NCBI GenBank assembly: GCA_034520945.1
Contig: JAXHNB010000005.1
Location: 608,001-672,000 of the forward strand
Direction: 5' to 3'
DNA from: Trueperaceae bacterium
GTDB taxonomy: Bacteria > Deinococcota > Deinococci > Deinococcales > Trueperaceae
Length of the DNA stretch: 64,000 nt
The position numbers were made by a program, and so were the translations under genes. Numbering within the stretch: position 1 is the first letter of the stretch; each line of letters starts with the position of its first letter. The notes under the pieces were generated by a model. The model saw only the letters and a program-made list of their open reading frames with translations. It was not told the origin of the DNA and did no database searches. Of the stretch, positions 46,411 to 59,702 are shown in pieces.

Positions 46411-48657
46411 TCAGTGCGACAGGCCGAAGCGGTCCGCCAGCCGGGCCAGCGGCGCCGGCAACCACCAGTTCAGCCGGCCCGCCAGCGTCATCACCGCGGG
46501 CACCAACGCCAACCGCACCAAGGTCGCGTCCAGCAGGATCGCCACCGCCAGGCCGACGCCGAGCGTCTTGATCAGCACCACCTCGCTGAAGAAGAACACG
46601 CTGAACACCACCAGCATCACGGTCGCCGCGCTGGTGATCACCCCGCCGGTGGTCTCGAGGGCGCTGGCGACGGCCTCGTGGTCCGACAGACCGCGTTCGT
46701 GCGCCTCGAAGATCCGGGCCACCAGAAACACCTCGTAGTCCATCGACAGGCCGAACACGATCGCGAACACGAACAGCGGCACGTTGGAGTCCACGATGCC
46801 CAGGCCCCCGTCGAGGCCCAGCAGCGGCGCGCCGACCCCCATCTGGAACACCAGCGTGATCACCCCGTACGACGCCGCCACCGTCAGCGCGTTCAGCACG
46901 ATCGACTTGATCGGGATCAGCACCGAGCGGAACGCCAGGCCCAGCAGCACCAGCGTCGCCGCGAACACCAACCCCAGCGTCAACGGGAAGCTGCTGTACA
47001 GCACGCGGCTCCAGGCGGCCTCGAACGCGGCGCTGCCGCCGATCTGCACCTCCAGGCCGTGCGACGCCGCCAGGCGCCGCGCCTCGGCCGCCAACCCGGC
47101 GCTCTCGGCCGGCGGCAGGTCACCGATCGGCACGACCTGCAGCTGTACGTAGCGCCCGTCCTGGCCGACGGTGGCGTCCACCAGCTCGGCGACGTCGCTG
47201 CTGCGGGCCAGGTCCTCGTCGATGTAGTACTGGAACAAAAACAACCGCGGCACGCCGGGCGCCGAGAACGGCGAGATCACCGAGCGCACCGGCTCCAGCG
47301 CCTCCAGGTCGCGGGTCAGGCGCGACACGCGACGCGGGGCGGACGGCCCGAAGAACCCCTCCTCGCCCATGTCCACCAGGACCGTGGTGGCGGACAGGAA
47401 CCCCCCCAGCTCCGCGTCCTCCAACGCCGTGACGGCCGTGCGCGCCTCGGTGCCGCGCGCCATGCCGCGCGGGCCGGGGTCGGCCAGCTGCATCCAAAAC
47501 GCTGGCAGCGCCAGCAGCACCAGCGCCGCCGTGCCCAGGACCGTGAACGTCCACGGCCGCGCCATGATCACCTCCGCCCGCCGCCGCCAGAACACGCGGG
47601 TCCTCGTGCCGGGCGTCCGGCGCGTCACCTTGAGCCAATCCACCCGGTGCCCCATCAACGCCAGCAGCGCGGGCAAGGCCGTCCAAGACACCAGGACGCT
47701 GGCACTCATCACGATCATGGTGCCCACGCCGACGCTGCGGACGTAGGGCAGCGGCGCGAGCAGCAACGCCGACAACGCCACCACCACCGTCAGGCCGCTG
47801 AAGGCCACCGCCTTGCCGGCGGTGGCGCCCGTCTCCTCGGCCGCGTCACGTGGGGTGCGGCCCGCCCGAAGCTCCTCGCGATAGCGGTTCACCGTCAACA
47901 GCGCGTAGTCGATCCCCGTCGCCAGGCCCAGCATGGTGACGATGCTCTGCGTGAACACCGCGAACGGGAACACCTGCCCCACCAGGAACACCCCGGCCAG
48001 CGCCACCGTGATGGTGGTCGCCGCCACCAACAACGGCAGGACCGACGCGACCAGCGCCCCGAAGGCTACGATCAGCACCAGCAGGCTGATCGGAAGCCCG
48101 AACGCCTCGCCGCGGCGCGTGTCCCGTGCGCTCACCTCCCGCAACTCCAACGTGGTGGCGGGCCCGCCGGCCATCGCCACCTCGAGCTCGGGCCTCGCCG
48201 CGGCCGCCTTGCGGATGGTCGCGACCGCCTGCCGCGCGGCGGTCCGATCCGGGCCGCCGAACGCCAGTTGCCCCAGAAAGGTGCCCTCCGCCGCGCGGGT
48301 CGGCACCAGGTCGCGGATGTCGCGCAGCGACGACACGGCGGGGAGGTGTCGCACGTCGGCGAGGAACGCGTCGAGGCGTGCCCGGTAGGCGTCGCTCTCG
48401 TCCGCGGCGCGGACGACGAGCACCACCGATACCGAATCGCCCCCCGAGAACTGGTCCGCCACGCGGGTCGCCACGCTGACCGCTTCCGTGTCGGCGCTCA
48501 GCGACGGCTCGGCGGTCAGCACCTCCCCGACGCGGGCGGCCAGCGGCAGGCTGAGCCCCAAAATCAACGCCCACAGGGCCAGCACGTAGCGCGGACGCCG
48601 CGCGGGAATGCGGGCCGCGCGCCTGAAGAAGCCGGTCGGGGGTCGTCCTGGGTTCAT
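46411..48657 (-). CDS. MMPL/RND family lipid transporter
   Basis: GLATGIDYALL.VNRYREEL, TAGKAVAFSG, FGLSMDYEVFLVARI.E, DATLVR..LVPAVM. Confidence 0.93.
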   Translation of the reverse strand: MNPGRPPTGFFRRAARIPARRPRYVLALWALILGLSLPLAARVGEVLTAEPSLSADTEAVSVATRVADQFSGGDSVSVVLVVRAADESDAYRARLDAFLADVRHLPAVSSLRDIRDLVPTRAAEGTFLGQLAFGGPDRTAARQAVATIRKAAAARPELEVAMAGGPATTLELREVSARDTRRGEAFGLPISLLVLIVAFGALVASVLPLLVAATTITVALAGVFLVGQVFPFAVFTQSIVTMLGLATGIDYALLTVNRYREELRAGRTPRDAAEETGATAGKAVAFSGLTVVVALSALLLAPLPYVRSVGVGTMIVMSASVLVSWTALPALLALMGHRVDWLKVTRRTPGTRTRVFWRRRAEVIMARPWTFTVLGTAALVLLALPAFWMQLADPGPRGMARGTEARTAVTALEDAELGGFLSATTVLVDMGEEGFFGPSAPRRVSRLTRDLEALEPVRSVISPFSAPGVPRLFLFQYYIDEDLARSSDVAELVDATVGQDGRYVQLQVVPIGDLPPAESAGLAAEARRLAASHGLEVQIGGSAAFEAAWSRVLYSSFPLTLGLVFAATLVLLGLAFRSVLIPIKSIVLNALTVAASYGVITLVFQMGVGAPLLGLDGGLGIVDSNVPLFVFAIVFGLSMDYEVFLVARIFEAHERGLSDHEAVASALETTGGVITSAATVMLVVFSVFFFSEVVLIKTLGVGLAVAILLDATLVRLALVPAVMTLAGRLNWWLPAPLARLADRFGLSH

Positions 48658-49403
48658 CACACGCCGGCGAAGCTGGCGATGCGTGCACGCGCGCCTTCCT
48701 CCCGCGCATCCACCTCGCCCGCGACACTGCCGTCGCGGAGGAACACGATCCGGTCCGCCACCAAGGCGGCGTTCGGGTCGTGCGTGACCATCACCACCGT
48801 CCAGCCCTGATCATCGACGCCGTGGCGCAACAGGTCCAGCACCTCGCCCCCGGTGGCGGTGTCCAGGTTCCCGGTCGGCTCGTCCGCCAGCAGCAGCAGC
48901 GGGTCGTTGATCAACGCCCGCGCCAGCGAGACGCGCTGCCGCTGACCGCCCGAGAGCTGCGCCGGCCGGTGCGAGAGGCGGTCCTCGATGCCCAAGCGCC
49001 GCGCCAGCTCCGGCAGGCGACGCGCCGCCTCGGCGCCGCGACCCGCCACCTCGGCGGGAAGCAGCACGTTCTCGCGCGCCGTCAGGTTCGGGATCAGCTC
49101 GAAGGTCTGGAACACGAACCCGATCCGCTGCCGGCGCAGCAGGGTGAGCTGGTCGTCGTCCATGCCGCCCACGTCGGCGCCGCCGATACGCACGGTGCCG
49201 GTGTCGGGCGGCTCCAGCAGGCCCACCAGGTACAGCAGCGTCGACTTGCCGCTGCCCGAGGGGCCCATCACCGCAATGAACTCGCCGGGCGCGACCCGAA
49301 GCGACACGTCGCGAAGGGCATGGATGCGCGCCTCGCCCATGCGGTACGACTTGGCCAGCTCGCGGGCGTCCAGGACGAGGTCGTCGGGGGTGGGGCGCGT
49401 CAT
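48657..49403 (-). CDS. LolD/MacB-type ABC ATP-binding protein
   Basis: GPSGSGKSTLL, IGFVFQ, LSGGQRQRV, ADEPTGNLD, VTHDP. Confidence 0.93.
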   Translation of the reverse strand: MTRPTPDDLVLDARELAKSYRMGEARIHALRDVSLRVAPGEFIAVMGPSGSGKSTLLYLVGLLEPPDTGTVRIGGADVGGMDDDQLTLLRRQRIGFVFQTFELIPNLTARENVLLPAEVAGRGAEAARRLPELARRLGIEDRLSHRPAQLSGGQRQRVSLARALINDPLLLLADEPTGNLDTATGGEVLDLLRHGVDDQGWTVVMVTHDPNAALVADRIVFLRDGSVAGEVDAREEGARARIASFAGV

Positions 49404-51958
49404 TCGGTACCTCTCAGCGCGACGATGGGGGCCAGCCTCCCGGCGCGGCGGGCGGGCAAAAGCGAGGCGAGAAGCCCGACCGCGGGCGAGGCGGCCAGGG
49501 CGATCCCCACCAGCCGCCACGGCACCACGGGATCGATGGCGTAGCCGGTCAGCGCCGAGGCGCCGGCCGTCACGACATCGGCCAACAGCAGACCGAACGC
49601 CACGCCGAGAATGCTACCCGTGATCACCACCACGATGCCCTCCGCCATGACGACGCGTCGGATCCCCGCGCGGGTCATGCCGAAAGTGCGCAACATCGCC
49701 AACTCGCGACCGCGCACCACGAGGTTCATGCCCAACGTGTTGGCCACCCCCAGCGCGGCGATGATCACGGCCAGCACCAGCAGCATGTGGGTCGCGACGA
49801 ACGTGCGGTTGGACAGGGCGAGAATGCGATCCTGGTACGCCTGGTTCGGGGTGACGTCCAGGTACAGCTCGGGAAAGGCCGCGCCGAGGCGCTCCGCGAC
49901 CACGCCCGCCTCGCGCCCCTCCTCGACGGTCATCACGTACAGGTCGGGCGTGCCGCCCCCGAACCGTTCCATCTGCGCGATCGAGGCGACGAACGCCTCG
50001 CCGCCGCCGGTGAAGTCGACCACCACCCCGCCGACCTCGAACGTCTGGAAGCCCTCCTCGGTGCGGAGCTCGACCTCGCTGCCCACGCCGAGGTCGAAGC
50101 GCCTGCGCATGGTGCTGGCGGCCAGCACCCCGTCCGGCGAGGTGAGCGCCTGGTAGCCGGCCCGATCATCGCCTTGGCCCTGGACGTACTGGAAGCGACC
50201 GAACCCCTCGTCGGGGTGGAACCGGTCCGTGTCGACCAGCACCAGCGCCACAGTGCGGCCCCGCGGTTGGTCCTCGGGGCGGAAGCGGACGGCGCGAAGG
50301 CCCACCCCGGACACCACGTCGATCCCCTCGACCGCGCGGGCCCGCTCGGCGAACGTCTCTGGGAACGACACCGGCGACGTCACGAACAGGTCGCCCACCA
50401 CGGTGGTCTCCACCCAATCCTCGAGCTCCTGATTGATGCCGGCGATCAGCGCGCCGACGCCCACCACCAGGCCGGTCCCGATGATCACGGTGCCGATCGC
50501 GACGCCGTTGCGGCTGGCGCTGCGCTCCGCGAACGACGCGCCCAGCCGTCCCGCCACGCCCAGCACGCGCGCCAGGAGCGGCCCCATCACCCGCAGCGCG
50601 GGCCTGAGGAGGCTCTGCGCCGCCAGCGCCGTCCCCACCGCGAACGACACCATCGCCAGCCCGGCACCGGCCAGCGCGGCGTACCCCTCCCACGGAAGGC
50701 GCGTCACGATCACGGCCAGCGCCACCAACGCCCAACCGAGACCGGTACGGGCCGGCGCGGTGGCGGTGTCCGAGCGGCGCCACGCCGCCAGTGGCGAGTA
50801 CGCCGAGGCGCTGCGGGCCGGCAGCACCCCCGCCAGCAGCGACACGGCGAAGCCGAGCAGCACCGAGGCGATGACCGACCAGGCCGGCACCACCAACGTG
50901 TGCACCTGGTAGCCGAGGCCGACCGCGTTCACGCGGGTGAGGACCCACGCCAACGCCACGCCCATGGCGATCCCGACCCCCGCCCCCAGCGCGCTGAGGA
51001 GGGCGGCCTCGACCAGCGCCAGGCGCTGCACGTCGCGCCGGCGCATGGCGATGGTGCGCAACAGGGCGTACTCGCGGGTGCGTTCCACCACGCCGGCCAT
51101 GAAGGTGGCGTACGCCATGAACCCGCCCAACGCCAACAGGGTCACCGCCAGCACCAGCATCCCGGACTGCAGGGTCTGCACGATACCGCCGGCGACCTCG
51201 CCGGTTCCGGCCGGCGACGCCACCGCGTACGACGCGTCCAGGCGGGAGGTCAGGGCCTCTTTCACCTCCCGCGTGAGGGCACCGTCCGCCAGCAGCACCT
51301 CCAGGTGCGAGATGCGACCCTCCAGGCGCATCACCTCCTGCAGCGTCTCCAGGTGGGTGATGGCGACGCGCGCGCCGTTGGTGGCGGCGTAGCCTTCCGA
51401 TGCGTCCATCAGCCCGACGATCTCGAGGTCGACCTCCCCGAAGCGGGTCGCGAACGTCATCACGTCGCCGATCGCGAGATCGCGGCCGCCTGCGAACGCG
51501 TCGGTGATCGCCAGGGTGTCTTCGCCCGCCTCGGGCCACCGGCCCGCGGACAGCGTAGCGGGAAGGGCAGCCGGACGCTCGGTGTGGCGCCCGGACACCT
51601 GAAACCCGCTGTCGACGCCCGGCACGACCGAGCGTTCGAAGTCCTCGACGTCGCGCACCGGCTCGATCCGGACGTTGAGGACCGGTTCGAACCGCGCCAC
51701 GCCCGGCGTGCCGGCCACGCGCTCCCGCAGCGGCTCCGCCTCCATCACCGCGCGGCCCTGCGCACCGGGGGTGATCAACAGCTCCGCCGGGCCGGCCGCG
51801 GCCTCCAAGCCGGCCTGCACGTTGGCGCGGACGTTGGCGCCGACCGATAGAGTCGCCAGCACGGCGGCGATGCCCAGCGCCACGCCCAGGATGGTGGCCA
51901 GGGTGCGCCAGGGATGGCGAATCAGATTGCGCGCGGCCAAACGAAGCAGGATCGGCAT
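49400..51958 (-). CDS. FtsX-like/MacB-family ABC permease (duplicated)
   Basis: RNLIRHPWRTLATILGVALGIA, ERTREYALLRTI, second repeat RGRELAMLRTFGMTR, LLPARRA. Confidence 0.9.
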   Translation of the reverse strand: MPILLRLAARNLIRHPWRTLATILGVALGIAAVLATLSVGANVRANVQAGLEAAAGPAELLITPGAQGRAVMEAEPLRERVAGTPGVARFEPVLNVRIEPVRDVEDFERSVVPGVDSGFQVSGRHTERPAALPATLSAGRWPEAGEDTLAITDAFAGGRDLAIGDVMTFATRFGEVDLEIVGLMDASEGYAATNGARVAITHLETLQEVMRLEGRISHLEVLLADGALTREVKEALTSRLDASYAVASPAGTGEVAGGIVQTLQSGMLVLAVTLLALGGFMAYATFMAGVVERTREYALLRTIAMRRRDVQRLALVEAALLSALGAGVGIAMGVALAWVLTRVNAVGLGYQVHTLVVPAWSVIASVLLGFAVSLLAGVLPARSASAYSPLAAWRRSDTATAPARTGLGWALVALAVIVTRLPWEGYAALAGAGLAMVSFAVGTALAAQSLLRPALRVMGPLLARVLGVAGRLGASFAERSASRNGVAIGTVIIGTGLVVGVGALIAGINQELEDWVETTVVGDLFVTSPVSFPETFAERARAVEGIDVVSGVGLRAVRFRPEDQPRGRTVALVLVDTDRFHPDEGFGRFQYVQGQGDDRAGYQALTSPDGVLAASTMRRRFDLGVGSEVELRTEEGFQTFEVGGVVVDFTGGGEAFVASIAQMERFGGGTPDLYVMTVEEGREAGVVAERLGAAFPELYLDVTPNQAYQDRILALSNRTFVATHMLLVLAVIIAALGVANTLGMNLVVRGRELAMLRTFGMTRAGIRRVVMAEGIVVVITGSILGVAFGLLLADVVTAGASALTGYAIDPVVPWRLVGIALAASPAVGLLASLLPARRAGRLAPIVALRGTE

Positions 51959-52050
51959 GGGATACGACTCTCCAGGCGGCGGGGCGCCGCCGACCGCACT
52001 ACTTGTACCATCGCGTCCCACGCCCCCCGTGCAGGCTAGGATGGCAGTCG

Positions 52051-53172
52051 ATGACCTTTGCGCTGGTCCTGCTCGTGCTCACCGCCTACGTGGGCGGCTT
52101 GGCCTGGTTCGCGCTGCGCTGCCCGCGCCTCCAACCGCGCGAGGCCGCCCCCGCGGACGCGGGGTGCGTGTCGGTGCTGATCCCGGCACGCAACGAGGCG
52201 CCCGCCATTGCCGGGGCCGTACGCTCGGCGCTGGACCAGGGCGCCGTGGTGGGCGAGATACTGGTGGTGGACGACGGTTCCACCGACGGCACGCCCGAGG
52301 TGGTGCGCGATCTTCATCGCCGGGAGGAACGCGTGCGGTTGCTGCAGTCGCCGCCGTTGCCGCCCGGCTGGCACGGCAAGGCGCACGCGTTGGCGCACGG
52401 CAGCGCCCAGGCCCACGGCGCCTGGTTGCTGTTCGTCGACGCCGACACGCGCGCGTCGTCGGGCGCGTTGGCGGCCAGCCTGGAAGAGGTTCGCCGTCAA
52501 AAGGCCACCTTTCTGTCGCTGTGGCCCCGCCAACGCACGGCGTCGTTCTGGGAGCGCGCCGTCCAACCGGTCGTGATCGGGATCACGGCGGTGGGCAACG
52601 CCCTCAGGCGCCTGTGGGGACCGCCGTTTCCCGTCGCGTTGTCGGCCTGGGGCGTGTTCATTCTGGTGCGTGCCGAGGCGTACCGGCGGGTGGGGGGGCA
52701 TGCCACCGTGCGCGACCGGATCCTGGAGGACAGCGAACTGTGCGACGCATTTCGCGCCGCCGGCGAGCACGCGGTGACCTTCGATGGGCACCGCCTGGTG
52801 TCGGTCCACATGTACGAGGGACTCGGCGATCTTTGGGAGGGATGGCGCAAGAACCTGTTTCCGAGCCTGGGGTCGTCCCTCATCGCCACCCTCGGGGTGG
52901 TCGCCTTCGTGCTGCTGGTCACCTGGGGCCCCGTGTTGGGCCTCGGGGCCGCCCTGCTCGGGGCGGGTCCGGCGTGGCCGTGGACGATTCCGCTGGCGCT
53001 CCAGGTGCTGGCTGCAGGGCCGTTGACCGCCCGGTTGGTGGACGCCCCGCCACTCCTGGCCGTGTCCCCGCTCGGGGGCGCTGTCTACGCCGCGATGCTG
53101 CTCGCGTCCGCGTACGCGCACGTCACGCGGCGGGGCGTGTCGTGGAAGGGCCGCAGCTACGGCGGGACGTAG
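52051..53172 (+). CDS. Membrane GT2 glycosyltransferase (lipid-acceptor type, CrtQ/HpnB-like)
   Basis: N-terminal TM; VSVLIPARNE, VDDGSTDGT, PPGWHGKAHA, FVDAD, LED, GWRKN, WKGR. Confidence 0.88.
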   Translation: MTFALVLLVLTAYVGGLAWFALRCPRLQPREAAPADAGCVSVLIPARNEAPAIAGAVRSALDQGAVVGEILVVDDGSTDGTPEVVRDLHRREERVRLLQSPPLPPGWHGKAHALAHGSAQAHGAWLLFVDADTRASSGALAASLEEVRRQKATFLSLWPRQRTASFWERAVQPVVIGITAVGNALRRLWGPPFPVALSAWGVFILVRAEAYRRVGGHATVRDRILEDSELCDAFRAAGEHAVTFDGHRLVSVHMYEGLGDLWEGWRKNLFPSLGSSLIATLGVVAFVLLVTWGPVLGLGAALLGAGPAWPWTIPLALQVLAAGPLTARLVDAPPLLAVSPLGGAVYAAMLLASAYAHVTRRGVSWKGRSYGGT

Positions 53173-53236
53173 GGGCCCGCCTCGGGTGGGGCGCTTCAGG
53201 CAGCGTGCGGCCGGGGCTCCGCGGGCCGCGACGGAC

Positions 53237-54286
53237 TCATGTCGGCGGCGGGGCCTCGTCCGGTTCGTCAGGCCCGTCGACCTCGGCCGGTTCGTCCGGG
53301 CCCGCCGGCGGGCCGCCGTGCCGCGCCCACAGGTAGCCCCCCAGGGGCGGCCCGATCAGGAACAGGGCGTAGTGGCTGATCAAGCGCCACACCACCACCG
53401 CACCGACGACGCCGCCGCGCGCGCCCTGCGCCACCAGCGCCAGCGACGCCCCGAACTCGAAGAAGCCGCTGCCGCCGGGGGTGGGCACGACCGAACCCAA
53501 CCCGGCGACCAGCACCAATGCGGCGATGACCGTCCACGGGTCGACGGGCAGCCCGAAGCCGCGCGCGGACGCCCACAACACCGCGAAGAACGCCCCCCAC
53601 GACGCGGCCACCAGCAGGTGAAACCGCGCGTGCCAGCTCCACGGGGCGCCGTGCAGCAGCCCGTGCGCCTCCAGCAGGTTCGTCAGGAAGCGTTCCACCC
53701 CTTCGCGGTGGCGCGCGAGGCGGCCGCGCAACGCCCAGCGGGACAGCGGCAGCGCCCACGCCAGGCGGAAGGCCAGCAGGTAGGCGACGGCCAGGCCGCC
53801 CACGCTGACGATGAGCCCGGCGGTGCGCAGGACGACCGGGTTCGGCAGCGTGACGCTGCGGTCCAGCACCAGCAACGCCACGGGGAGCGACCAGCCGTAG
53901 AACACCGTGTCGGCGGCGATGGCGGCGACGCCGCTCGACCAGGCCGTTCCCGACGGCACGCCCTGGCGGGTCAGCGACAGCGCAAGCGCCGGCATGCCGC
54001 CGCTCCCGCCCGGCGTCACGGTGCTGGCGAACAACCCCAGCACGTGGCAGCGCACCGCGTGCCGCAGCCGCAGCGGCGCCCCGGTGCGCCGCACCAGCAT
54101 CGCCAGGCGCATCCCCGCGAACAGGAACGATGCCAACAGGAACCCCAACGCCGCCGCCAACCACGGCAGCTCGATGCGGGAGAGGTGCTGCAGCTCCTCC
54201 ACGCCGAGCCAGGCGACCACCCCCGCCAACGCGGCGCCGCCGATCAGGAACGACGCCACCAGGGCGCGGATCACCGTCCCTGTCAC
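53237..54286 (-). CDS. Lysylphosphatidylglycerol-synthase-TM (flippase-like) membrane protein
   Basis: About 8 TM; VTPGGSGGMP, PTPGGSGFFE, VVVWRLISHY. Confidence 0.85.
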   Translation of the reverse strand: MTGTVIRALVASFLIGGAALAGVVAWLGVEELQHLSRIELPWLAAALGFLLASFLFAGMRLAMLVRRTGAPLRLRHAVRCHVLGLFASTVTPGGSGGMPALALSLTRQGVPSGTAWSSGVAAIAADTVFYGWSLPVALLVLDRSVTLPNPVVLRTAGLIVSVGGLAVAYLLAFRLAWALPLSRWALRGRLARHREGVERFLTNLLEAHGLLHGAPWSWHARFHLLVAASWGAFFAVLWASARGFGLPVDPWTVIAALVLVAGLGSVVPTPGGSGFFEFGASLALVAQGARGGVVGAVVVWRLISHYALFLIGPPLGGYLWARHGGPPAGPDEPAEVDGPDEPDEAPPPT

Positions 54287-55455
54287 GGAGATGCCTCGGC
54301 CGGGGTCAGGAACCGTCGCAGCAGCCACGACGCCACATCGGGGCCGCCGTTGCGGAGATCCAGGGCGGCGATGGCATGTCGCCAGCCGTCCAGAGCGTCG
54401 GGGTGGGCGGCGAAGCCGGCGATCAGCTCGGCCAGGGCCCGGGGCCGCCGCGCCAGGGTGCCGACGCCGGCGCGGACCACGTAGTCCGCGATCGCCTTCT
54501 CGTTGGCGGCGGCGTAGCCGGTGTGTACGACCGGCCGGCCGCTCAACAACGCCTCGAAGGTCGACGCCGGCCCCGCCTTGCCGATCAGCAGGTCGGCGGC
54601 GCAGGTGAGGCGCCGCATGTCGCTGCGGAACCCCAACGGCACCACGCGGGTCGGCCCCTCCTCCGAGGCGTCACGCGCCAGGCGGGCGCGCAGCGCCTCG
54701 TTGCGGCCGCACGCCGCCAGCACGGTGACGGGGACGCCCTGGGCGCGAAGGCGGGCCACGGTGGCGTGCAGCGGCCCGCCGATCCCCTCGCCTCCGGCCG
54801 ACCACAACACCGTGAATCGCCCGGGATCCAAGGACAACGCCCGCCGCGGCGCGGCGGCGTCCGGACAGGGCCCGTCGAACTCGGGACGCGCCACGAAGTC
54901 GAAGCGGGCGATCTTGTCCTCCGGGACGCCGTGGCGGGCCAGGTCGGCGGCGGCGCGGCGGCTGAACACCACCATGGCGTCGACGTGCGGTTCGGCCCAC
55001 AAGGCGTGGGCGTCCATCGCGTCGGGGTTCACGCCCACCACCGGGACGTTCAGGCCGTGGCGCCGCCGCGCCAACGCCAGCGCCTGCACCGTGAAGAAGT
55101 GGGTGGCCACGACCAGGTCGAAGCGGTGCGTCCGCAGGTACGCCGCGGCGTGGCGGGCGTGCGCCGCCAGCATGGCGCCCTGCACGGCGCGGCTGATGCG
55201 GGCCGGCACCACCTCGTCCAGGGCGCGCTGTCCCAGGTAGGCGGCGGCCGGTGCGCGCAGCATCCAGCGCCAGGACGCCTTGTGCCGCCGGTCCAGGCCC
55301 GTGTCGCCCACCGCGGCGGTGAAGTCCAGCACGGCGCTGTCCACGCGGCCCGGCGCTTCGCGCTCGACCCACGCCGACAGCGCCTCCGCCGAGGTTCGGT
55401 GCCCGTTCCCGACGGTGATCATGGCGAACAGGACGCGGGGTCGGCCCGCGCTCAC
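54283..55455 (-). CDS. MGDG-synthase/UgtP-like GT28 glycosyltransferase
   Basis: VGNGHRTSAEAL, DLVVATHF, HALW, GGEGIG, CGRNEAL, ADLLIGKAGPAST.EA. Confidence 0.88.
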   Translation of the reverse strand: MSAGRPRVLFAMITVGNGHRTSAEALSAWVEREAPGRVDSAVLDFTAAVGDTGLDRRHKASWRWMLRAPAAAYLGQRALDEVVPARISRAVQGAMLAAHARHAAAYLRTHRFDLVVATHFFTVQALALARRRHGLNVPVVGVNPDAMDAHALWAEPHVDAMVVFSRRAAADLARHGVPEDKIARFDFVARPEFDGPCPDAAAPRRALSLDPGRFTVLWSAGGEGIGGPLHATVARLRAQGVPVTVLAACGRNEALRARLARDASEEGPTRVVPLGFRSDMRRLTCAADLLIGKAGPASTFEALLSGRPVVHTGYAAANEKAIADYVVRAGVGTLARRPRALAELIAGFAAHPDALDGWRHAIAALDLRNGGPDVASWLLRRFLTPAEASP

Positions 55456-56438
55456 ATCCATCCCTGTTGGGCGTACCACGCGGCCGTGGCCCGCGCCCCG
55501 TCCGCCAACGCGGTGGGCGCGGTCCACCCGAACGCGTCCATGGTCGAGGCGACCTCGGTGGTGTAGCTCCGTTCCGCCAGGTCGCGTGCGCGGCGAAGGT
55601 CCAGCTCGGGGGCGGTGCCGCGCAGCCACGCCCAGGTCTCGCTGGCGTAGGCGGCGAAGCGGAACGCGACCGGCGGGAGGTGCACCGTGCGCACGGCGTC
55701 GCGGCCGACCGCGGCGGCGAGGAGCGCCGGCAGGTCGCGCCAGGCGTATGCCCGTGGTTCGGCGACCGGCCAGGGGCCGAAGCCGGTCGCATCGGACGCC
55801 AACACGCGGGCCACCAGCTCGGCGACGTCGTCGACGTAGACCGGCTGCACCCGCCCGCCGCCCGGGGGGAGCGCCAGCACGCCGCGGCGCGCCAGCGCGA
55901 ACAGGGGCAGCAGGTCGCGGTCGCCCGGGCCGTACACGGCGCTGGGCCGCAGCGACGCCGCCCAGCCCGCCGGTGCGAGCGCCTGCACCTGCCGCTCCCC
56001 CTCTAGCTTGCTGCGGGCGTAGGCGCTGCGCGGCGCGTCGCCCGGGCTGGCCCGCACGGTCGTGCCCGCGTCGCCGGCGACCGGGTCCGGGCCGCGGGCG
56101 GCCAGGCTGCCCAGGTACACGAACCGCCCGGCGCCTGCGTCCAGGGCGGCACGCGCCAGGCGGGCGCTGCCGTCCGCGTTGGCGGCGTGCAGCGCCGCCT
56201 CGCTGCGGGCGCGGGTCAGGCCGGCGGCGTGCACCACCGCGTCCACGCCGTGGCAGGCCGCCCGCAGCGCCGCCTCGTCCGACAGGTCGGCCAGGACGTG
56301 CTCGGCCGGAACCCCCGCCAGGCGCCCGGCATCGCTGCCGCGGCGCAGGGTGACGCGCAGCGCCACGCCGCCTTGTGCCAGGCGGGCCGCCACCCGCGCG
56401 CCGACGAAGCCGGTCGCGCCCGTCAGCAGCACCTTCAC
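55452..56438 (-). CDS. NAD-dependent epimerase/dehydratase (extended SDR); candidate ceramide reductase
   Basis: TGATGFVG, HAAG, YARSK catalytic motif, RPSAVYGPGD. Confidence 0.85.
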   Translation of the reverse strand: MKVLLTGATGFVGARVAARLAQGGVALRVTLRRGSDAGRLAGVPAEHVLADLSDEAALRAACHGVDAVVHAAGLTRARSEAALHAANADGSARLARAALDAGAGRFVYLGSLAARGPDPVAGDAGTTVRASPGDAPRSAYARSKLEGERQVQALAPAGWAASLRPSAVYGPGDRDLLPLFALARRGVLALPPGGGRVQPVYVDDVAELVARVLASDATGFGPWPVAEPRAYAWRDLPALLAAAVGRDAVRTVHLPPVAFRFAAYASETWAWLRGTAPELDLRRARDLAERSYTTEVASTMDAFGWTAPTALADGARATAAWYAQQGWM

Positions 56439-56466
56439 GGCCCGATCGTCCCGGCGTGCCGGCGCG

Positions 56467-57576
56467 TCACAGCGCCTTCTGGTACAGGCGGTAGGTCTTG
56501 TACACCTCGGCGCCCAGCAGCCGCAGGCCCTTGTTGATCGGCTCGTTGTCCTCCAGGATCCAGGACAGCTCCGCCTGGCGGTAGCCCGCCACCTCGCCGC
56601 GGCGCCAGATCTCGTCGATCAGCACCAGCTCCAGGCCACGATTGCGGTGGGGCGGAAGCACGCCCAGCAACGCCAGGCGGAGCTGGTAGATGATCCGTTT
56701 GCGGCGCAGCAACGGCACGATCCCGAACGGCACGATCCGCCCGTGAAAGCGGGCCAGCACCTGGTTCAGGTTCGGCAGCGCCAGGGCCATGCCGACCACC
56801 TCGCCGTCCAGTTCCAGGAACAGCACGATCCGCGGGTCCAGCACCATTTTGAGGGTGTCGGCCAGGTGCGCGAACTCGGCGTCGGTGTAGGGCACCTGGC
56901 CCCAGTTGTCCTCCCAGGCCTGGGCGTACAGGCGGTGCACCGTGGCCAGTTCATGGTCCCAGTCCTCCAAGCGCACCTGCCGCACCACTGCGCCGGTGCG
57001 CCGCCGCGCGCGTTCCGCCAACCGCACGAACCGCTCGGGGATGCCGTACTCGCTGCGCGCCTCCCAGGCGCAGAGGTCCTTCACCTTGGCGAAGCCGCGG
57101 GCTTCGACCCAGGCGGGATACGAGGGGGGGTTCCACGGCATCATCACGTACGGCGGCAGGTGATGCGCGTCCACCTGCAGCCCGGCGCTGTCGTTCAGTG
57201 ACGGGTTGGCCGGCCCCCGCAACGCCGTGCGGCCCAGCGCCCGCGCCCGGTCCTCGGCGGCGTCCAGCAAGGCGGCGGCCACCTCCTCGTCCTCGGCCTC
57301 GAAGAAGCCGAAGAAGGCGAGGTCGTCGCCGTGAATCCGGTTGTGCAGGTCGTCGTCGATGACGGCGACGCGCCCCACCGGTCGTCCCGACCGTTCGGCC
57401 AGGAACAGGTCCATGCGGGCGTGCTCGAAGAAGGGGTTGCGCGTTTCGTCCAACGTCTCGCGTTCGGCCATGCGCAGTGGCGCCACGAAACCGGGCGTGC
57501 CGCGGTGCAGGCGCACGGGCAGGTCCAAGAAGCGCGCCCGGTCGCGGCGGCCCTCGGCGCGCCGTACGGTGGTCAC
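56467..57576 (-). CDS. GNAT-fold acyltransferase resembling bacterial ceramide synthase (bCerS)
   Basis: NPFFEHA...FLA...GRPVGRVA...D..HN..H....FFGFFE, LRGP.NPSLND..GL, MMPWNP..Y, K.KDL, AW..NWG.VP.T..EF, LPNLNQ, ELSWILEDN..IN, YKTYRLY. Confidence 0.75.
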   Translation of the reverse strand: MTTVRRAEGRRDRARFLDLPVRLHRGTPGFVAPLRMAERETLDETRNPFFEHARMDLFLAERSGRPVGRVAVIDDDLHNRIHGDDLAFFGFFEAEDEEVAAALLDAAEDRARALGRTALRGPANPSLNDSAGLQVDAHHLPPYVMMPWNPPSYPAWVEARGFAKVKDLCAWEARSEYGIPERFVRLAERARRRTGAVVRQVRLEDWDHELATVHRLYAQAWEDNWGQVPYTDAEFAHLADTLKMVLDPRIVLFLELDGEVVGMALALPNLNQVLARFHGRIVPFGIVPLLRRKRIIYQLRLALLGVLPPHRNRGLELVLIDEIWRRGEVAGYRQAELSWILEDNEPINKGLRLLGAEVYKTYRLYQKAL

Positions 57577-57660
57577 GGGCGTGGTCCCGCCACGCGCGGC
57601 GACGGTCCCCCGCGGCGCTCGGCGGGCGAGGGGGCGCGCCGGGTGGGGCCGGGCCGCGGG

Positions 57661-58917
57661 TCAGACCACGCCAAGGGCGCGCCCGACCCTCTCGAAGGCT
57701 TCGAGCAGTTGGTCCAACTGTGCATCGGTGTGGTTCGCGTTCACGCTGGTGCGAATGATCGACTTGCCCTGCGGCACGCCGGGAGGCAGGGCGGGGGTGG
57801 TGAACACGCCCGCGTCCCACAGGCCGCGCCAGAACCGCATGGTGGTGTCGTCGTCCCCGATCAGGGCCGGCACGATCGGGGTGCGGCTCCCCAGCGTGTC
57901 GAACCCAAGGCCATCCAGGCCGGTGCGGAGCTTGGCGACGTTGTCCCACAGCCGGTCGCGGTGCCACGGTTCGGTCTCGATGATGTCCAGCGCCTTCAGG
58001 GCGGCCGCCATCTGCATGGCGGGCAGCGCGGCGGTGAACATGAACGGCCGGGCATGGTGCTTGACGTAGTTCACGACCTTGGCCGGGCCCGCCATGAACC
58101 CGCCGACCGATCCGAACGCCTTCGAGAAGGTGCCCACGATCAGGTCCACCTCGGCCTCGAGGCCGAAGTGTTCGGCGGTGCCGCGCCCGTGGGCGCCCAG
58201 AACGCCGGTGGCGTGCGCATCGTCCACGATGAGGCGGGCGCCGTACCTTCGCGCGACCTCGACCAGTTCGGGCAGCGGCGCCACGTGACCGCTCATCGAG
58301 AACACGCCGTCGGTGACGATGATGCGGCCGCCGGGGCGGTCGACGTCCCGCTCCAGCAGGCGAGCGAGGTCGTCGACGTCGCCGTGGTCGTACTTGCGCA
58401 ACGACCCGAAGCTCAGCCGGGCGCCGTCGTACAGGCAGGCGTGGTTCTCGCGATCGAAGTACAGCACGTCGTGTCGGCCCGCCAGCGCGGCGATGACCGC
58501 CAGCGCCCCCAGGTAGCCGGCGCTGAAGGTCAGCACCGACTCGCGCTGCAGGAACACCGCCAGGCGTTGTTCCAGCGTGTGATGCAACGACAGCGTCCCC
58601 GTCAGAAAGCGCGAGCCGGTGCAGCTGGTGCCGAACCCGTTCAGCGCGTCGCGGGCCGCGGTCTTGAGGCGCTCGTCCTGCGTCAGCCCGAGGTAGTCGT
58701 TCGAGCCGGAAATCACCATCTCGCGGCCGTCGACGACCACCGTGCCGCCCTGCTGGGACTCGATCACCTTGAAGTAGGGGTGCAGCCCCGCCCGTTCGGC
58801 CCATTCGGCGCGCGTGAACGCGAACGCCTTGGCGAACGCGTCCTCGGCGGCACGCCCATCGGCGCCGGTGCGCTCGGGATGTGCGGTCGTCGGGGAAAAC
58901 TCGCGAGCGTCAGACAA
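57661..58917 (-). CDS. PLP-dependent alpha-oxoamine synthase, serine palmitoyltransferase-like
   Basis: GGAGG then TTG 58917; PYFKVIES, GSNDYLGL, GTSCTGSRFLTGT..LH..LE, NHAC.YDG, DGVFSM.G, DDAH..GVLG..GRG, GTFSKAFGSVGGF, ARPFMFTAA. Confidence 0.85.
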   Translation of the reverse strand: MSDAREFSPTTAHPERTGADGRAAEDAFAKAFAFTRAEWAERAGLHPYFKVIESQQGGTVVVDGREMVISGSNDYLGLTQDERLKTAARDALNGFGTSCTGSRFLTGTLSLHHTLEQRLAVFLQRESVLTFSAGYLGALAVIAALAGRHDVLYFDRENHACLYDGARLSFGSLRKYDHGDVDDLARLLERDVDRPGGRIIVTDGVFSMSGHVAPLPELVEVARRYGARLIVDDAHATGVLGAHGRGTAEHFGLEAEVDLIVGTFSKAFGSVGGFMAGPAKVVNYVKHHARPFMFTAALPAMQMAAALKALDIIETEPWHRDRLWDNVAKLRTGLDGLGFDTLGSRTPIVPALIGDDDTTMRFWRGLWDAGVFTTPALPPGVPQGKSIIRTSVNANHTDAQLDQLLEAFERVGRALGVV

Positions 58918-59150
58918 GAAGGCCTCCAGCGCCGGTCGCCCCCGGCGAACGGGGCATGATAGCACGCACCCATCGACGTTCCGTGTGGGCGGATCGTCCA
59001 GGGACGCCGGCTCGGCGTGACGGGGACGCGCCCCGCCGGCGCTGCCCGGCCGTTTCCGGCACGTGCCGTGCGGCGCGGCACCCGGCCGCTGGCAGCCGGT
59101 ATAATCAAAGCAGTGAACGGATTCGATGCGATTTCGTCGAAGGGGGGACG

Positions 59151-59702
59151 ATGGAAGCTTCCGCCCAGGTGACGGCGCCTGGCGTGTCGTTGCGGCCCAC
59201 GGGGCCGGACGACACCGAGCGCGTCCACGCCCTGTACCTGTCGGTTCCCAGCTACTTCGACGTCCTGAACGCGCCCGTGCCCTCCGCCGAAGAGGTCCGG
59301 ACCGAGCTCGAGGCGGCCGCGGGCGATCCAAGGCGCCGCACCGAGCTGATCTTGTTGCACGACGACCCTTCGCCGGCCACGCCGGACCCGGACCCGCACA
59401 CCGGGGCATGGGTGGCGGGCTACCTGGATGTCACCCTCGACTACATCGAGGAGGGGGACGCCACCGTCAACCTGTTGCTGGTGCGCACCGACCTGCAGCG
59501 CCGCGGCATCGGCGCGGCCTGCATGCGGGCGTTGGAGGAGCGCCTTCAGGGGCGGGCGACCCGTGTCTTGGCCAGCGTGTACGGGAGCAACCCCGGGGCG
59601 CGGCGGTTCTGGCATCAGCTCGGCTACCGGTTCGCCATCGATGCGGCGCCGGTATTGGCGTGGTACGCCAAGCGGATCGTGCCCTCGGCGACGCCCGGCT
59701 GA
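59151..59702 (+). CDS. GNAT family N-acetyltransferase
   Basis: LLLVRTDLQRRGIG motif A and N..ARRFW..LGY; TATAAT at 59100-59105 upstream. Confidence 0.85.
   Translation: MEASAQVTAPGVSLRPTGPDDTERVHALYLSVPSYFDVLNAPVPSAEEVRTELEAAAGDPRRRTELILLHDDPSPATPDPDPHTGAWVAGYLDVTLDYIEEGDATVNLLLVRTDLQRRGIGAACMRALEERLQGRATRVLASVYGSNPGARRFWHQLGYRFAIDAAPVLAWYAKRIVPSATPG

Follow-up and report, generated by a model that had tools for sequence, protein, structure and literature searches.

Bacterial ceramide synthesis is an established three-enzyme pathway (PMC11087976, PMC11324152), and the question raised by the locus described here is whether five adjacent genes of a Trueperaceae bacterium code for such a pathway, together with proteins that would glycosylate its product and move it across the membrane. 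The genes lie at positions 53,237 to 58,917 of the window, by which we mean the whole stretch of 64,000 nucleotides that was analysed (contig JAXHNB010000005.1); the host is described as a salt-loving Deinococcus relative. An earlier note, made from the letters alone, had read these genes as a candidate ceramide and glycosphingolipid operon. Our results point in the same direction, and we consider it probable that the operon is responsible for ceramide synthesis of the Spt/bCerS/CerR type, with a lipid glycosyltransferase and a flippase-like protein as further members. The core assignment to Spt, bCerS and CerR has good support from homology and synteny. Our data show which genes are present, to which families they belong, where they fall in the trees, how they are coupled and which of them co-occur; the reactions themselves, their amino-acid, acyl and sugar substrates and the transport are matters that we infer. 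The operon is most likely an ordinary member of a widespread kind, found in a group where such lipids have not been looked for. Its five genes, all on the minus strand, are the following:

57661-58917, minus strand: alpha-oxoamine synthase (AOS), Spt-like, 418 amino acids (Pfam Aminotran_1_2, 195 bits)
56467-57576, minus strand: bCerS/YghO-family tandem-GNAT N-acyltransferase, 369 amino acids (Acetyltransf_1, 33 bits, residues 212-299 only)
55452-56438, minus strand: CerR-type extended short-chain dehydrogenase/reductase (SDR), 328 amino acids (Pfam Epimerase, 110 bits)
54283-55455, minus strand: GT28 MGDG-synthase/UgtP-like glycosyltransferase, about 390 amino acids (MGDG_synth 35.0 bits and Glyco_tran_28_C 22.8 bits)
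53237-54286/54328, minus strand: stand-alone LPG_synthase_TM (MprF-flippase-like) membrane protein (Pfam LPG_synthase_TM, 105 bits)

The region has a GC content of 70-77%, with long open reading frames (ORFs) in every frame, many of them spurious because of that composition. A Pfam scan of 12 candidate ORFs spanning 53186-59409 gave matches in these five minus-strand ORFs only, and the 7 others (5 on the plus strand, 2 in alternative minus frames) had 0 Pfam matches each and were rejected as shadow ORFs. The genes are tightly packed, with 84 nt between AOS and GNAT, 28 nt between GNAT and SDR, and GTGA start/stop overlaps at both the SDR/glycosyltransferase and the glycosyltransferase/flippase junctions. 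Together, the Pfam scan and the junctions bear out every detail of the earlier description of five co-oriented, closely spaced or overlapping genes in this order. For the AOS, TTG 58917 is the most likely start codon and GGAGG precedes it by a few bases; the glycosyltransferase would start at GTG 55455 or ATG 55461, and the flippase-like protein has 349 amino acids if read from GTG 54286 and 363 if read from 54328. A scan of 52900-59300 for consensus promoters and terminators found none, a weak piece of evidence that is uninformative for this phylum.

Family membership of the three core enzymes

The AOS carries the motifs on which its first assignment had been based, since both HPYFKVIES and GTFSK are present in the translation, and its GTFSK, which holds the Schiff-base lysine for pyridoxal phosphate (PLP), aligns with GTFSK of E. 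coli Spt (38% identity by BLASTP, E 7e-94). Its top NCBIfam model is Spt-CFB (424.5 bits, cut-off 640), with 391.5 bits for the beta-proteobacterial Spt model (cut-off 500) and 301.5 bits for the alpha-proteobacterial one (cut-off 670); these three models describe taxon-specific subfamilies, to none of which the window AOS belongs. Taken alone, scores from these hidden Markov models leave the class of the enzyme ambiguous. A sequence search of the PDB gave the Sphingobacterium Spt structures 3a2b and 8guh as best matches (352 bits, residues 34-411), followed by a Thermus BioF/Kbl enzyme (290 bits), Sphingomonas Spt (272 bits), cysteate acyltransferase (255 bits) and, lower, Kbl (about 250 bits), BioF (about 200-215 bits) and ALAS (about 199 bits or less), ALAS being the lowest-scoring of the four AOS classes in NCBIfam as well as in the PDB.

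As far as sequence relationships can tell, the question is settled by the AOS tree, in which the enzyme is a member of the Spt clade and not of Kbl or BioF, in agreement with the grouping that the earlier note had anticipated. This was a quick IQ-TREE search over 97 rows, from which duplicates (L128, L093 and L094) and high-scoring segment pairs (HSPs) of less than 300 residues had been dropped, and in which E. coli Spt stood for the characterised Spt enzymes and Kbl and BioF for the other AOS classes. A clade of 83 rows (SH-aLRT 98) unites the window AOS with E. coli Spt and with AOS genes that neighbour a GNAT gene, and Kbl and BioF lie outside it. The only other AOS of the genome pairs with E. 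coli Kbl (support 100); the ORF upstream of that second gene had 0 Pfam matches and no linkage to tdh was shown. In 6 GNAT-less Deinococcales genomes there is one AOS each, and these enzymes group apart, in a clade next to Kbl. Sequences from Trueperaceae, Rubrobacteraceae and family f5 make up their own clade (SH-aLRT 100), and the window AOS is best filed, on its sequence, as Spt-like in the sense of clade B of Ding et al. The Sphingobacterium multivorum enzyme, a soluble Spt of the Bacteroidota type, is thus the best match among solved structures and the CFB type the best NCBIfam model, but the window AOS scores under the cut-off of the CFB model and belongs to the clade just described.

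The identification of the second gene as a bCerS homologue did not come from curated databases, where the window GNAT had 0 matches among NCBIfam models and 0 in a PDB sequence search. With 1114 representative clusters at E <= 1e-30 its family is large, and a profile built from 12 of its sequences (A2) matches E. coli K-12 yghO over its whole length with 387 bits. By BLASTP the window protein is 30% identical to YghO (E 3e-61, residues 1-369 against 7-380). The legend of Fig. 9 in Padilla-Gomez et al. 2022 (PMC9386255) equates aca with CC_1154 and with yghO ECD_02850, and the same paper gives epi as CC_1164 and ECD_02852, describes the aca and epi genes as required for dihydroceramide, and includes an assay of the E. 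coli SPT. The proposal that the GNAT belongs to the bCerS family is therefore upheld through full-length homology to YghO and the equation of YghO with CC_1154, a link to Caulobacter that runs via E. coli, whose sequences were the ones compared. An AlphaFold2 model of the window protein is a tandem GNAT (pLDDT 93.3), with fold matches to the clavulanate tandem GNAT, glucosamine N-acetyltransferase, MAB_4324 and mycothiol synthase MshD; the predicted structure thus bears a resemblance to amine-acylating tandem GNATs such as MshD and glucosamine N-acetyltransferase.

In the GNAT tree (93 rows, with duplicate rows L124 and L125 and HSPs of less than 300 residues dropped), members with and without an adjacent AOS are intermixed and there is no separate paralogue clade. 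The closest homologues are named Trueperaceae bacterium (75% identity), Deinococcota bacterium and Truepera radiovictrix (P0055, 59%). Among 5 unusually long members of the family that were scanned, 2 are AOS+GNAT fusions, 1 joins the GNAT to an AMP-ligase, 1 is a double GNAT and 1 had no match:

P0189: AOS+GNAT fusion, complete
P0154: AOS+GNAT fusion, N-terminally short
P0235: GNAT fused to an AMP-binding acyl-activating domain
P0122: doubled GNAT

In an ST131 strain of E. coli (L127), yghO is divergent from genes for a fatty acyl-AMP ligase, an NAD epimerase-family protein, an acyl carrier protein (ACP) and spt, which are followed by lptG and lptF. The K-12 locus (L126, 3129043-3131340) retains yghO under the annotation 'putative DNA-binding transcriptional regulator', and IS5 abuts it where other strains have the aasR-cerR-acpR-spt operon; yghO DNA is found in 4757 of 5426 complete E. 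coli genomes. Another route to Caulobacter was sought through the class of a locus labelled 'MAG: Sulfitobacter sp.' (L042, genome G041), in which 106 of 151 genomes match the GNAT profile, about 80 of them very strongly. That route gave no link to a characterised gene, which E. coli yghO supplied instead, and since 106 of 151 is unexpectedly many for Alphaproteobacteria, the label may not fit the placement of this genome.

The third gene had been taken for CerR, and this is supported by its match to the epimerase-family gene that lies between aasR and acpR in the E. coli spt operon (30% identity, E 9e-32), with the motifs TGATGFVG (residues 6-13) and YARSK aligning with their E. coli counterparts. 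PDB matches of the window SDR include NDUFA9/39-kDa subunits. Its Rossmann motif begins at residue 6, at the extreme N-terminus, and the E. coli homologue is built alike; since this rules out a cleavable signal peptide, the window SDR looks cytoplasmic from its sequence. The lack of room for a signal peptide sets it apart from the Caulobacter CerR, which was reported to be periplasmic (PMC11087976).

Conservation, variants and possible transfer of the operon

The synteny set consisted of 80 GNAT loci from other phyla, with representatives of Rubrobacteraceae, Gemmatimonadota, Zixibacteria, Acidobacteriota, Myxococcota, Bacteroidota, Ignavibacteriota, Planctomycetota and Chloroflexota, among others. 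An AOS gene lies at most 1.5 kb from the GNAT gene in 58 of these loci, and in 52 of the 58 it precedes the GNAT gene on the same strand, which is also the arrangement of the window. An SDR gene is found within 3 kb in 45 loci, and 44 have both neighbours; the 22 loci with no adjacent AOS include 3 in which the upstream flank is shorter than 600 bp. The same co-location of AOS, bCerS and CerR genes occurs in loci from Gemmatimonadota, Zixibacteria, Acidobacteriota, Myxococcota, Bacteroidota, Planctomycetota and others. The survey of synteny thus came out in favour of the gene order noted before, with AOS followed by GNAT both in Trueperaceae and across phyla.

The GNAT was matched in 25 of 41 relatives (20/24 in family f1, 0/12 in families f2-f4 and 4/4 in family f5), and in each of the 24 relatives whose GNAT match is strong it is accompanied by an AOS of at least 507 bits. 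One genome (G011) has a distant GNAT only and no AOS of at least 507 bits; in the genomes without a GNAT, the best AOS is about 42% identical to that of the window and scores below 300 bits. Neither the AOS nor the GNAT of the cluster type was found in the 12 genomes of families f2-f4. On a larger scale, the GNAT is present in 105 of 128 Trueperaceae genomes and in 34 of 36 genera, with the unpublished genome G272 counted in. In one Trueperaceae genome the GNAT match (G284:C8:2887-3987) is broken up by 10 stop codons and is probably a pseudogene.

The cluster exists in two forms. The compact AOS-GNAT-SDR-glycosyltransferase-flippase form is that of the window and of two other genomes, G006 (L003) and G008 (L007). 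In a longer form, an Rce1-like (CPBP) protein or an ORF of matching size stands between the GNAT gene and a different SDR gene; this form was found in G007 (L158) and G005, both of the same genus as the window, in G020 (L160) and in G292 (L179). The last is a complete genome of 3,260,398 bp whose GNAT is 100% identical to P0055, named Truepera radiovictrix at NCBI, and its order is AOS, GNAT, a 242-amino-acid ORF, SDR, GT28, a 369-amino-acid ORF and the flippase-like gene, with a MacB-type permease further on. The SDR of the longer form is 31-37% identical to that of the window and scores 66 bits against the CerR-type gene of E. coli, compared with 108 bits for the window SDR. Between the window and G007, identity is 81% for the AOS, 73% for the GNAT and only about 35% for the SDR; the flanking efp and accC genes are 80-87% identical to those of genomes from the same genus, and these identities, with the names of the closest GNAT homologues, place the contig in Trueperaceae.

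Rubrobacteraceae of the Actinomycetota have the same five genes in the same order at two loci (L013 and L015) and the first four at a third (L016); L014 is a further record listed with these three. Identity of L013, L015 and L016 to the window is 66-70% for the AOS, 51-54% for the GNAT, 45-46% for the SDR and 36-40% for the glycosyltransferase, with a flippase match of about 28% at L013 and L015. The Rubrobacteraceae proteins are placed inside or beside the Trueperaceae clade in the AOS and GNAT trees (SH-aLRT 95 and 99, respectively), and the flanks of their loci lack the neighbour genes seen in Trueperaceae. Nested placement in both trees together with different flanks suggests, from sequence comparison, that the operon was laterally transferred between Deinococcota and Rubrobacteraceae.

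The proposed pathway and its competitors

Both domains of the glycosyltransferase pass their Pfam cut-offs (25 for MGDG_synth and 22 for Glyco_tran_28_C), an arrangement of an MGDG_synth N-domain and a GT28 C-domain that it shares with plant MGD1 and with UgtP/YpfP. Its sole PDB sequence matches are plant MGD1 (4wyi, 89 bits) and a processive diacylglycerol beta-glucosyltransferase (54 bits), and since these only structural relatives are lipid glycosyltransferases it is taken for one as well. It scores 66.8 bits against the NCBIfam diglucosyl-diacylglycerol synthase equivalog, under the cut-off of 500. The flippase-like protein matches LPG_synthase_TM far above the cut-off of 33.4, over profile positions 2-302 of 302, and TIGR00374 with 69.3 bits (cut-off 43.2), and scores 62.7 bits, under the cut-off of 320, against the GlcN-PG flippase model NF053789. 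This is a full-length match to the family of MprF and TIGR00374, but the window protein stands alone, without the aminoacyl-phosphatidylglycerol synthase part. A glycosyltransferase of the cluster type, scoring at least 150 bits, is present in 20 of 20 Trueperaceae that have both AOS and GNAT (the window's own genome included), with best matches of at most 78 bits in all 5 Trueperaceae that lack the pair and of at most 61 bits in families f2-f4; in family f5 the match is strong in 1 of 4 genomes. From family membership, operon coupling and co-occurrence we infer, and only infer, that the ceramide would be glycosylated and flipped.

According to the reading that we favour, the PLP-dependent AOS would form a 3-keto long-chain base by condensing L-serine with a fatty acyl thioester. 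Its acyl donor would probably be acyl-CoA, since the operon comes without an ACP or acyl-ACP synthetase of its own; the earlier remark that these genes, bio genes and tdh are missing from the neighbourhood held across 46-64 kb of the window. The tandem-GNAT protein would N-acylate the amine, before or after reduction of the 3-keto group by the NAD(P)H-dependent extended SDR, and the two steps together would yield dihydroceramide. The GT28 enzyme could then move a hexose from a UDP-sugar onto the 1-hydroxyl of ceramide, a lipid that resembles diacylglycerol, and the MprF-like membrane protein may bring the product into the outer leaflet of the inner membrane. Its onward transport from there may fall to the conserved neighbours of the operon, a MacB-type ABC transporter and an MMPL protein.

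Several results weigh against this interpretation. The window AOS falls under the cut-off of all three NCBIfam Spt equivalog models, and the BioF/Kbl-related and bioF models, at 397 and 387 bits, come near the 424.5 bits of Spt-CFB, all of them below their cut-offs; moreover, the amino-acid specificity of an AOS is not readable from homology. Conservation of the SDR is poor even among members of one genus (35-37% identity in G007 and G005), and in most Trueperaceae examined a different SDR and an Rce1-like membrane protein occupy its position. In family f5 the AOS and GNAT genes are unlinked and 3 of the 4 genomes have a weak glycosyltransferase match only. The co-occurrence counts overstate independence, because the genomes are related and the genes physically linked. 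To our knowledge, the characterised GT28 enzymes act on diacylglycerol and not on ceramide, and the bacterial ceramide glycosyltransferases characterised so far belong to other GT families. Among the papers searched, none reports a sphingoid base from any Deinococcota.

The glycosyltransferase evidence is the starting point of one competing explanation, in which the AOS, GNAT and SDR do make a ceramide-like lipid and the GT28 and flippase-like genes serve a glycosyl-diacylglycerol pathway, being merely co-located or co-transcribed. The only structural-database relatives of the glycosyltransferase are diacylglycerol enzymes, none of the 76 GNAT loci beyond Trueperaceae and Rubrobacteraceae has a nearby glycosyltransferase or flippase match, the best glycosyltransferase match in G017 is 34 kb away from the GNAT gene, and a complex mix of glycolipids was reported for T. 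radiovictrix (PMC3072082). However, GTGA overlaps connect the SDR to the glycosyltransferase and the glycosyltransferase to the flippase-like gene, the cluster-type glycosyltransferase follows the AOS and GNAT pair among Trueperaceae (20/20 with the pair, 0/5 without), and the gene order is retained in Rubrobacteraceae, so that we regard this separation of the operon into two pathways as unlikely. The doubt about substrates leads to a different proposal, that the chemistry is the same and the amino acid is another one (alanine, glycine, threonine or cysteate), which would give a 1-deoxy-, desoxymethyl- or sulfono-type sphingoid lipid. The missed Spt cut-offs agree with it, as do the strong PDB match to cysteate-C-fatty acyltransferase and the abundant 1-deoxyceramides that Ding et al. 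2024 (PMC11334938) described from environmental bacteria with Spt-like genes. The best PDB matches are nevertheless Spt structures, at 352 bits against 255 for the cysteate enzyme, the E. coli Spt that has been assayed belongs to the same clade as the AOS, and a primary hydroxyl on the acceptor would suit the translationally coupled lipid glycosyltransferase; a 1-deoxy base would leave no 1-hydroxyl for that enzyme to act on. A substrate other than serine seems quite improbable to us.

A more radical possibility is that the AOS is a housekeeping BioF/Kbl enzyme with unrelated neighbours and that there is no sphingolipid pathway at all. The bioF and Kbl-related models (387-397 bits) lie close to the Spt model (424 bits), and the Thermus dual BioF/Kbl enzyme is among the PDB matches at 290 bits, but the partner of E. 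coli Kbl in the tree, with 100% support, is a separate AOS of this genome, and the cluster AOS was not found in the GNAT-less relatives. With AOS-GNAT adjacency in 58 of 80 loci across phyla and the existence of proteins that fuse the two, this explanation is very hard to sustain and is close to being refuted by the AOS tree. The ceramide reading extended by glycosylation and flipping can be carried further, to a Trueperaceae envelope glycosphingolipid made with the coupled GT28 and MprF-like flippase, exported to the outer membrane by MacB and MMPL proteins beside a reduced set of lipid A genes, and coded by an operon that moved, in either direction, between diderm Deinococcota and monoderm Rubrobacteraceae. 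We offer this fuller picture tentatively, as something that may well turn out otherwise; if it is true, export by MacB and MMPL proteins would be a sphingolipid route distinct from the LptF2/G2 route proposed for Caulobacter.

Relation to known systems and neighbouring genes

The B-type ceramide genes of Caulobacter and E. coli (spt CC_1162, cerR CC_1164, cerS/bCerS CC_1154 = yghO, acpR and aasR) comprise the same three enzyme families, whereas the window cluster is without acpR and aasR. The window GNAT gene stands in the operon directly after the AOS gene, unlike cerS of Rhodobacteria, which is described in PMC11324152 as always lying in a separate operon. No LptF2/G2 paralogues are found near the window cluster, where a MacB-type ABC transporter and an MMPL protein are found instead. 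With respect to MGD1 and UgtP, the difference lies in the acceptor, as the one proposed for the window glycosyltransferase is ceramide and not the known substrate of that family.

A close parallel is found in the metagenomic clusters of Ding et al. 2024 (ISME J, PMC11334938), which likewise have an Spt-like AOS with bCerS and CerR homologues nearby, in many non-proteobacterial phyla; Spt-like genes, often beside bCerS and CerR, were reported there in about 40 phyla. The novelty assumed in the earlier note is therefore smaller than it had seemed, and the operon is no new kind of system, because the literature already covers both its three core enzymes and how widely they occur. The main text of Ding et al. 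does not name Deinococcota, the phylum list being in the supplement, and the word 'glycosyltransferase' is absent from the main text of the preprint. A literature search by title and abstract, a scope that left supplementary phylum lists outside it, found nothing linking Deinococcota or Truepera to sphingolipid synthesis. If our reading is true, Deinococcota would join the sphingolipid-producing phyla through a cultured strain, Truepera radiovictrix, and bacterial glycosphingolipids could be studied in a model that tolerates heat, salt and radiation. Our reading would also provide a candidate ceramide-using GT28 enzyme together with candidate flippase and export proteins, and PMC11087976 describes the flippase and export proteins for Caulobacter sphingolipids as still unidentified.

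Beyond the flippase-like gene, the downstream flank holds a convergent GT2 gene and then, on the minus strand, the MacB-type ABC transporter and the MMPL protein:

52003-53172, plus strand: GT2 glycosyltransferase with a weak match to Glyco_transf_21, the ceramide-glucosyltransferase family
48657-52021, minus strand: MacB-type ABC transporter (Pfam), with permease at 49400-52021 (MacB_PCD and two FtsX) and ATPase at 48657-49520
46411-48660, minus strand: MMPL-family (RND-type lipid exporter-like) protein (Pfam MMPL, 261 bits)

The GT2 protein was considered as the ceramide glucosyltransferase of the cluster and was rejected as a conserved part of it because 0 of 15 related loci examined have a match. 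MacB-type ABC genes follow the flippase gene in several Trueperaceae genera, within about 130 bp in L163 and L168 and at 1.3-1.6 kb in L161, L162 and L167, a range that reaches 2.6 kb when L179 is counted in, and an MMPL gene is also beside the cluster in L158 and L167; the MacB-type transporter and the MMPL protein may be functionally linked to the operon.

The earlier note had also assumed that Deinococcota lack lipopolysaccharide (LPS), and for Trueperaceae this premise is contradicted by our results. Another contig of the same genome (C6, about 569.6-573.9 kb; L176 6644-10861, minus strand) carries a lipid-A-like gene set that codes for LpxC (187 bits), a GFO/IDH/MocA oxidoreductase (GnnA-like), a FabA/FabZ-like protein, an LpxA-like protein and a weak LpxB-like match; WaaA was searched for in the window's genome and was not found. 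LpxC turned up in 23 of the 24 other Trueperaceae searched, in all 4 genomes of family f5, in 1 of 4 of f3, in 2 of 4 of f4 and in 0 of 4 of f2, and it was not detected in Thermus or Deinococcus control genomes. This distribution makes the premise of a missing LPS unsafe for Trueperaceae.

The upstream, divergent flank of the operon consists of a small GNAT-like ORF followed by efp, accB, accC and folD. The small ORF, read by eye at about 59150-59702 on the plus strand between the operon and efp, has a TATAAT-like box upstream.

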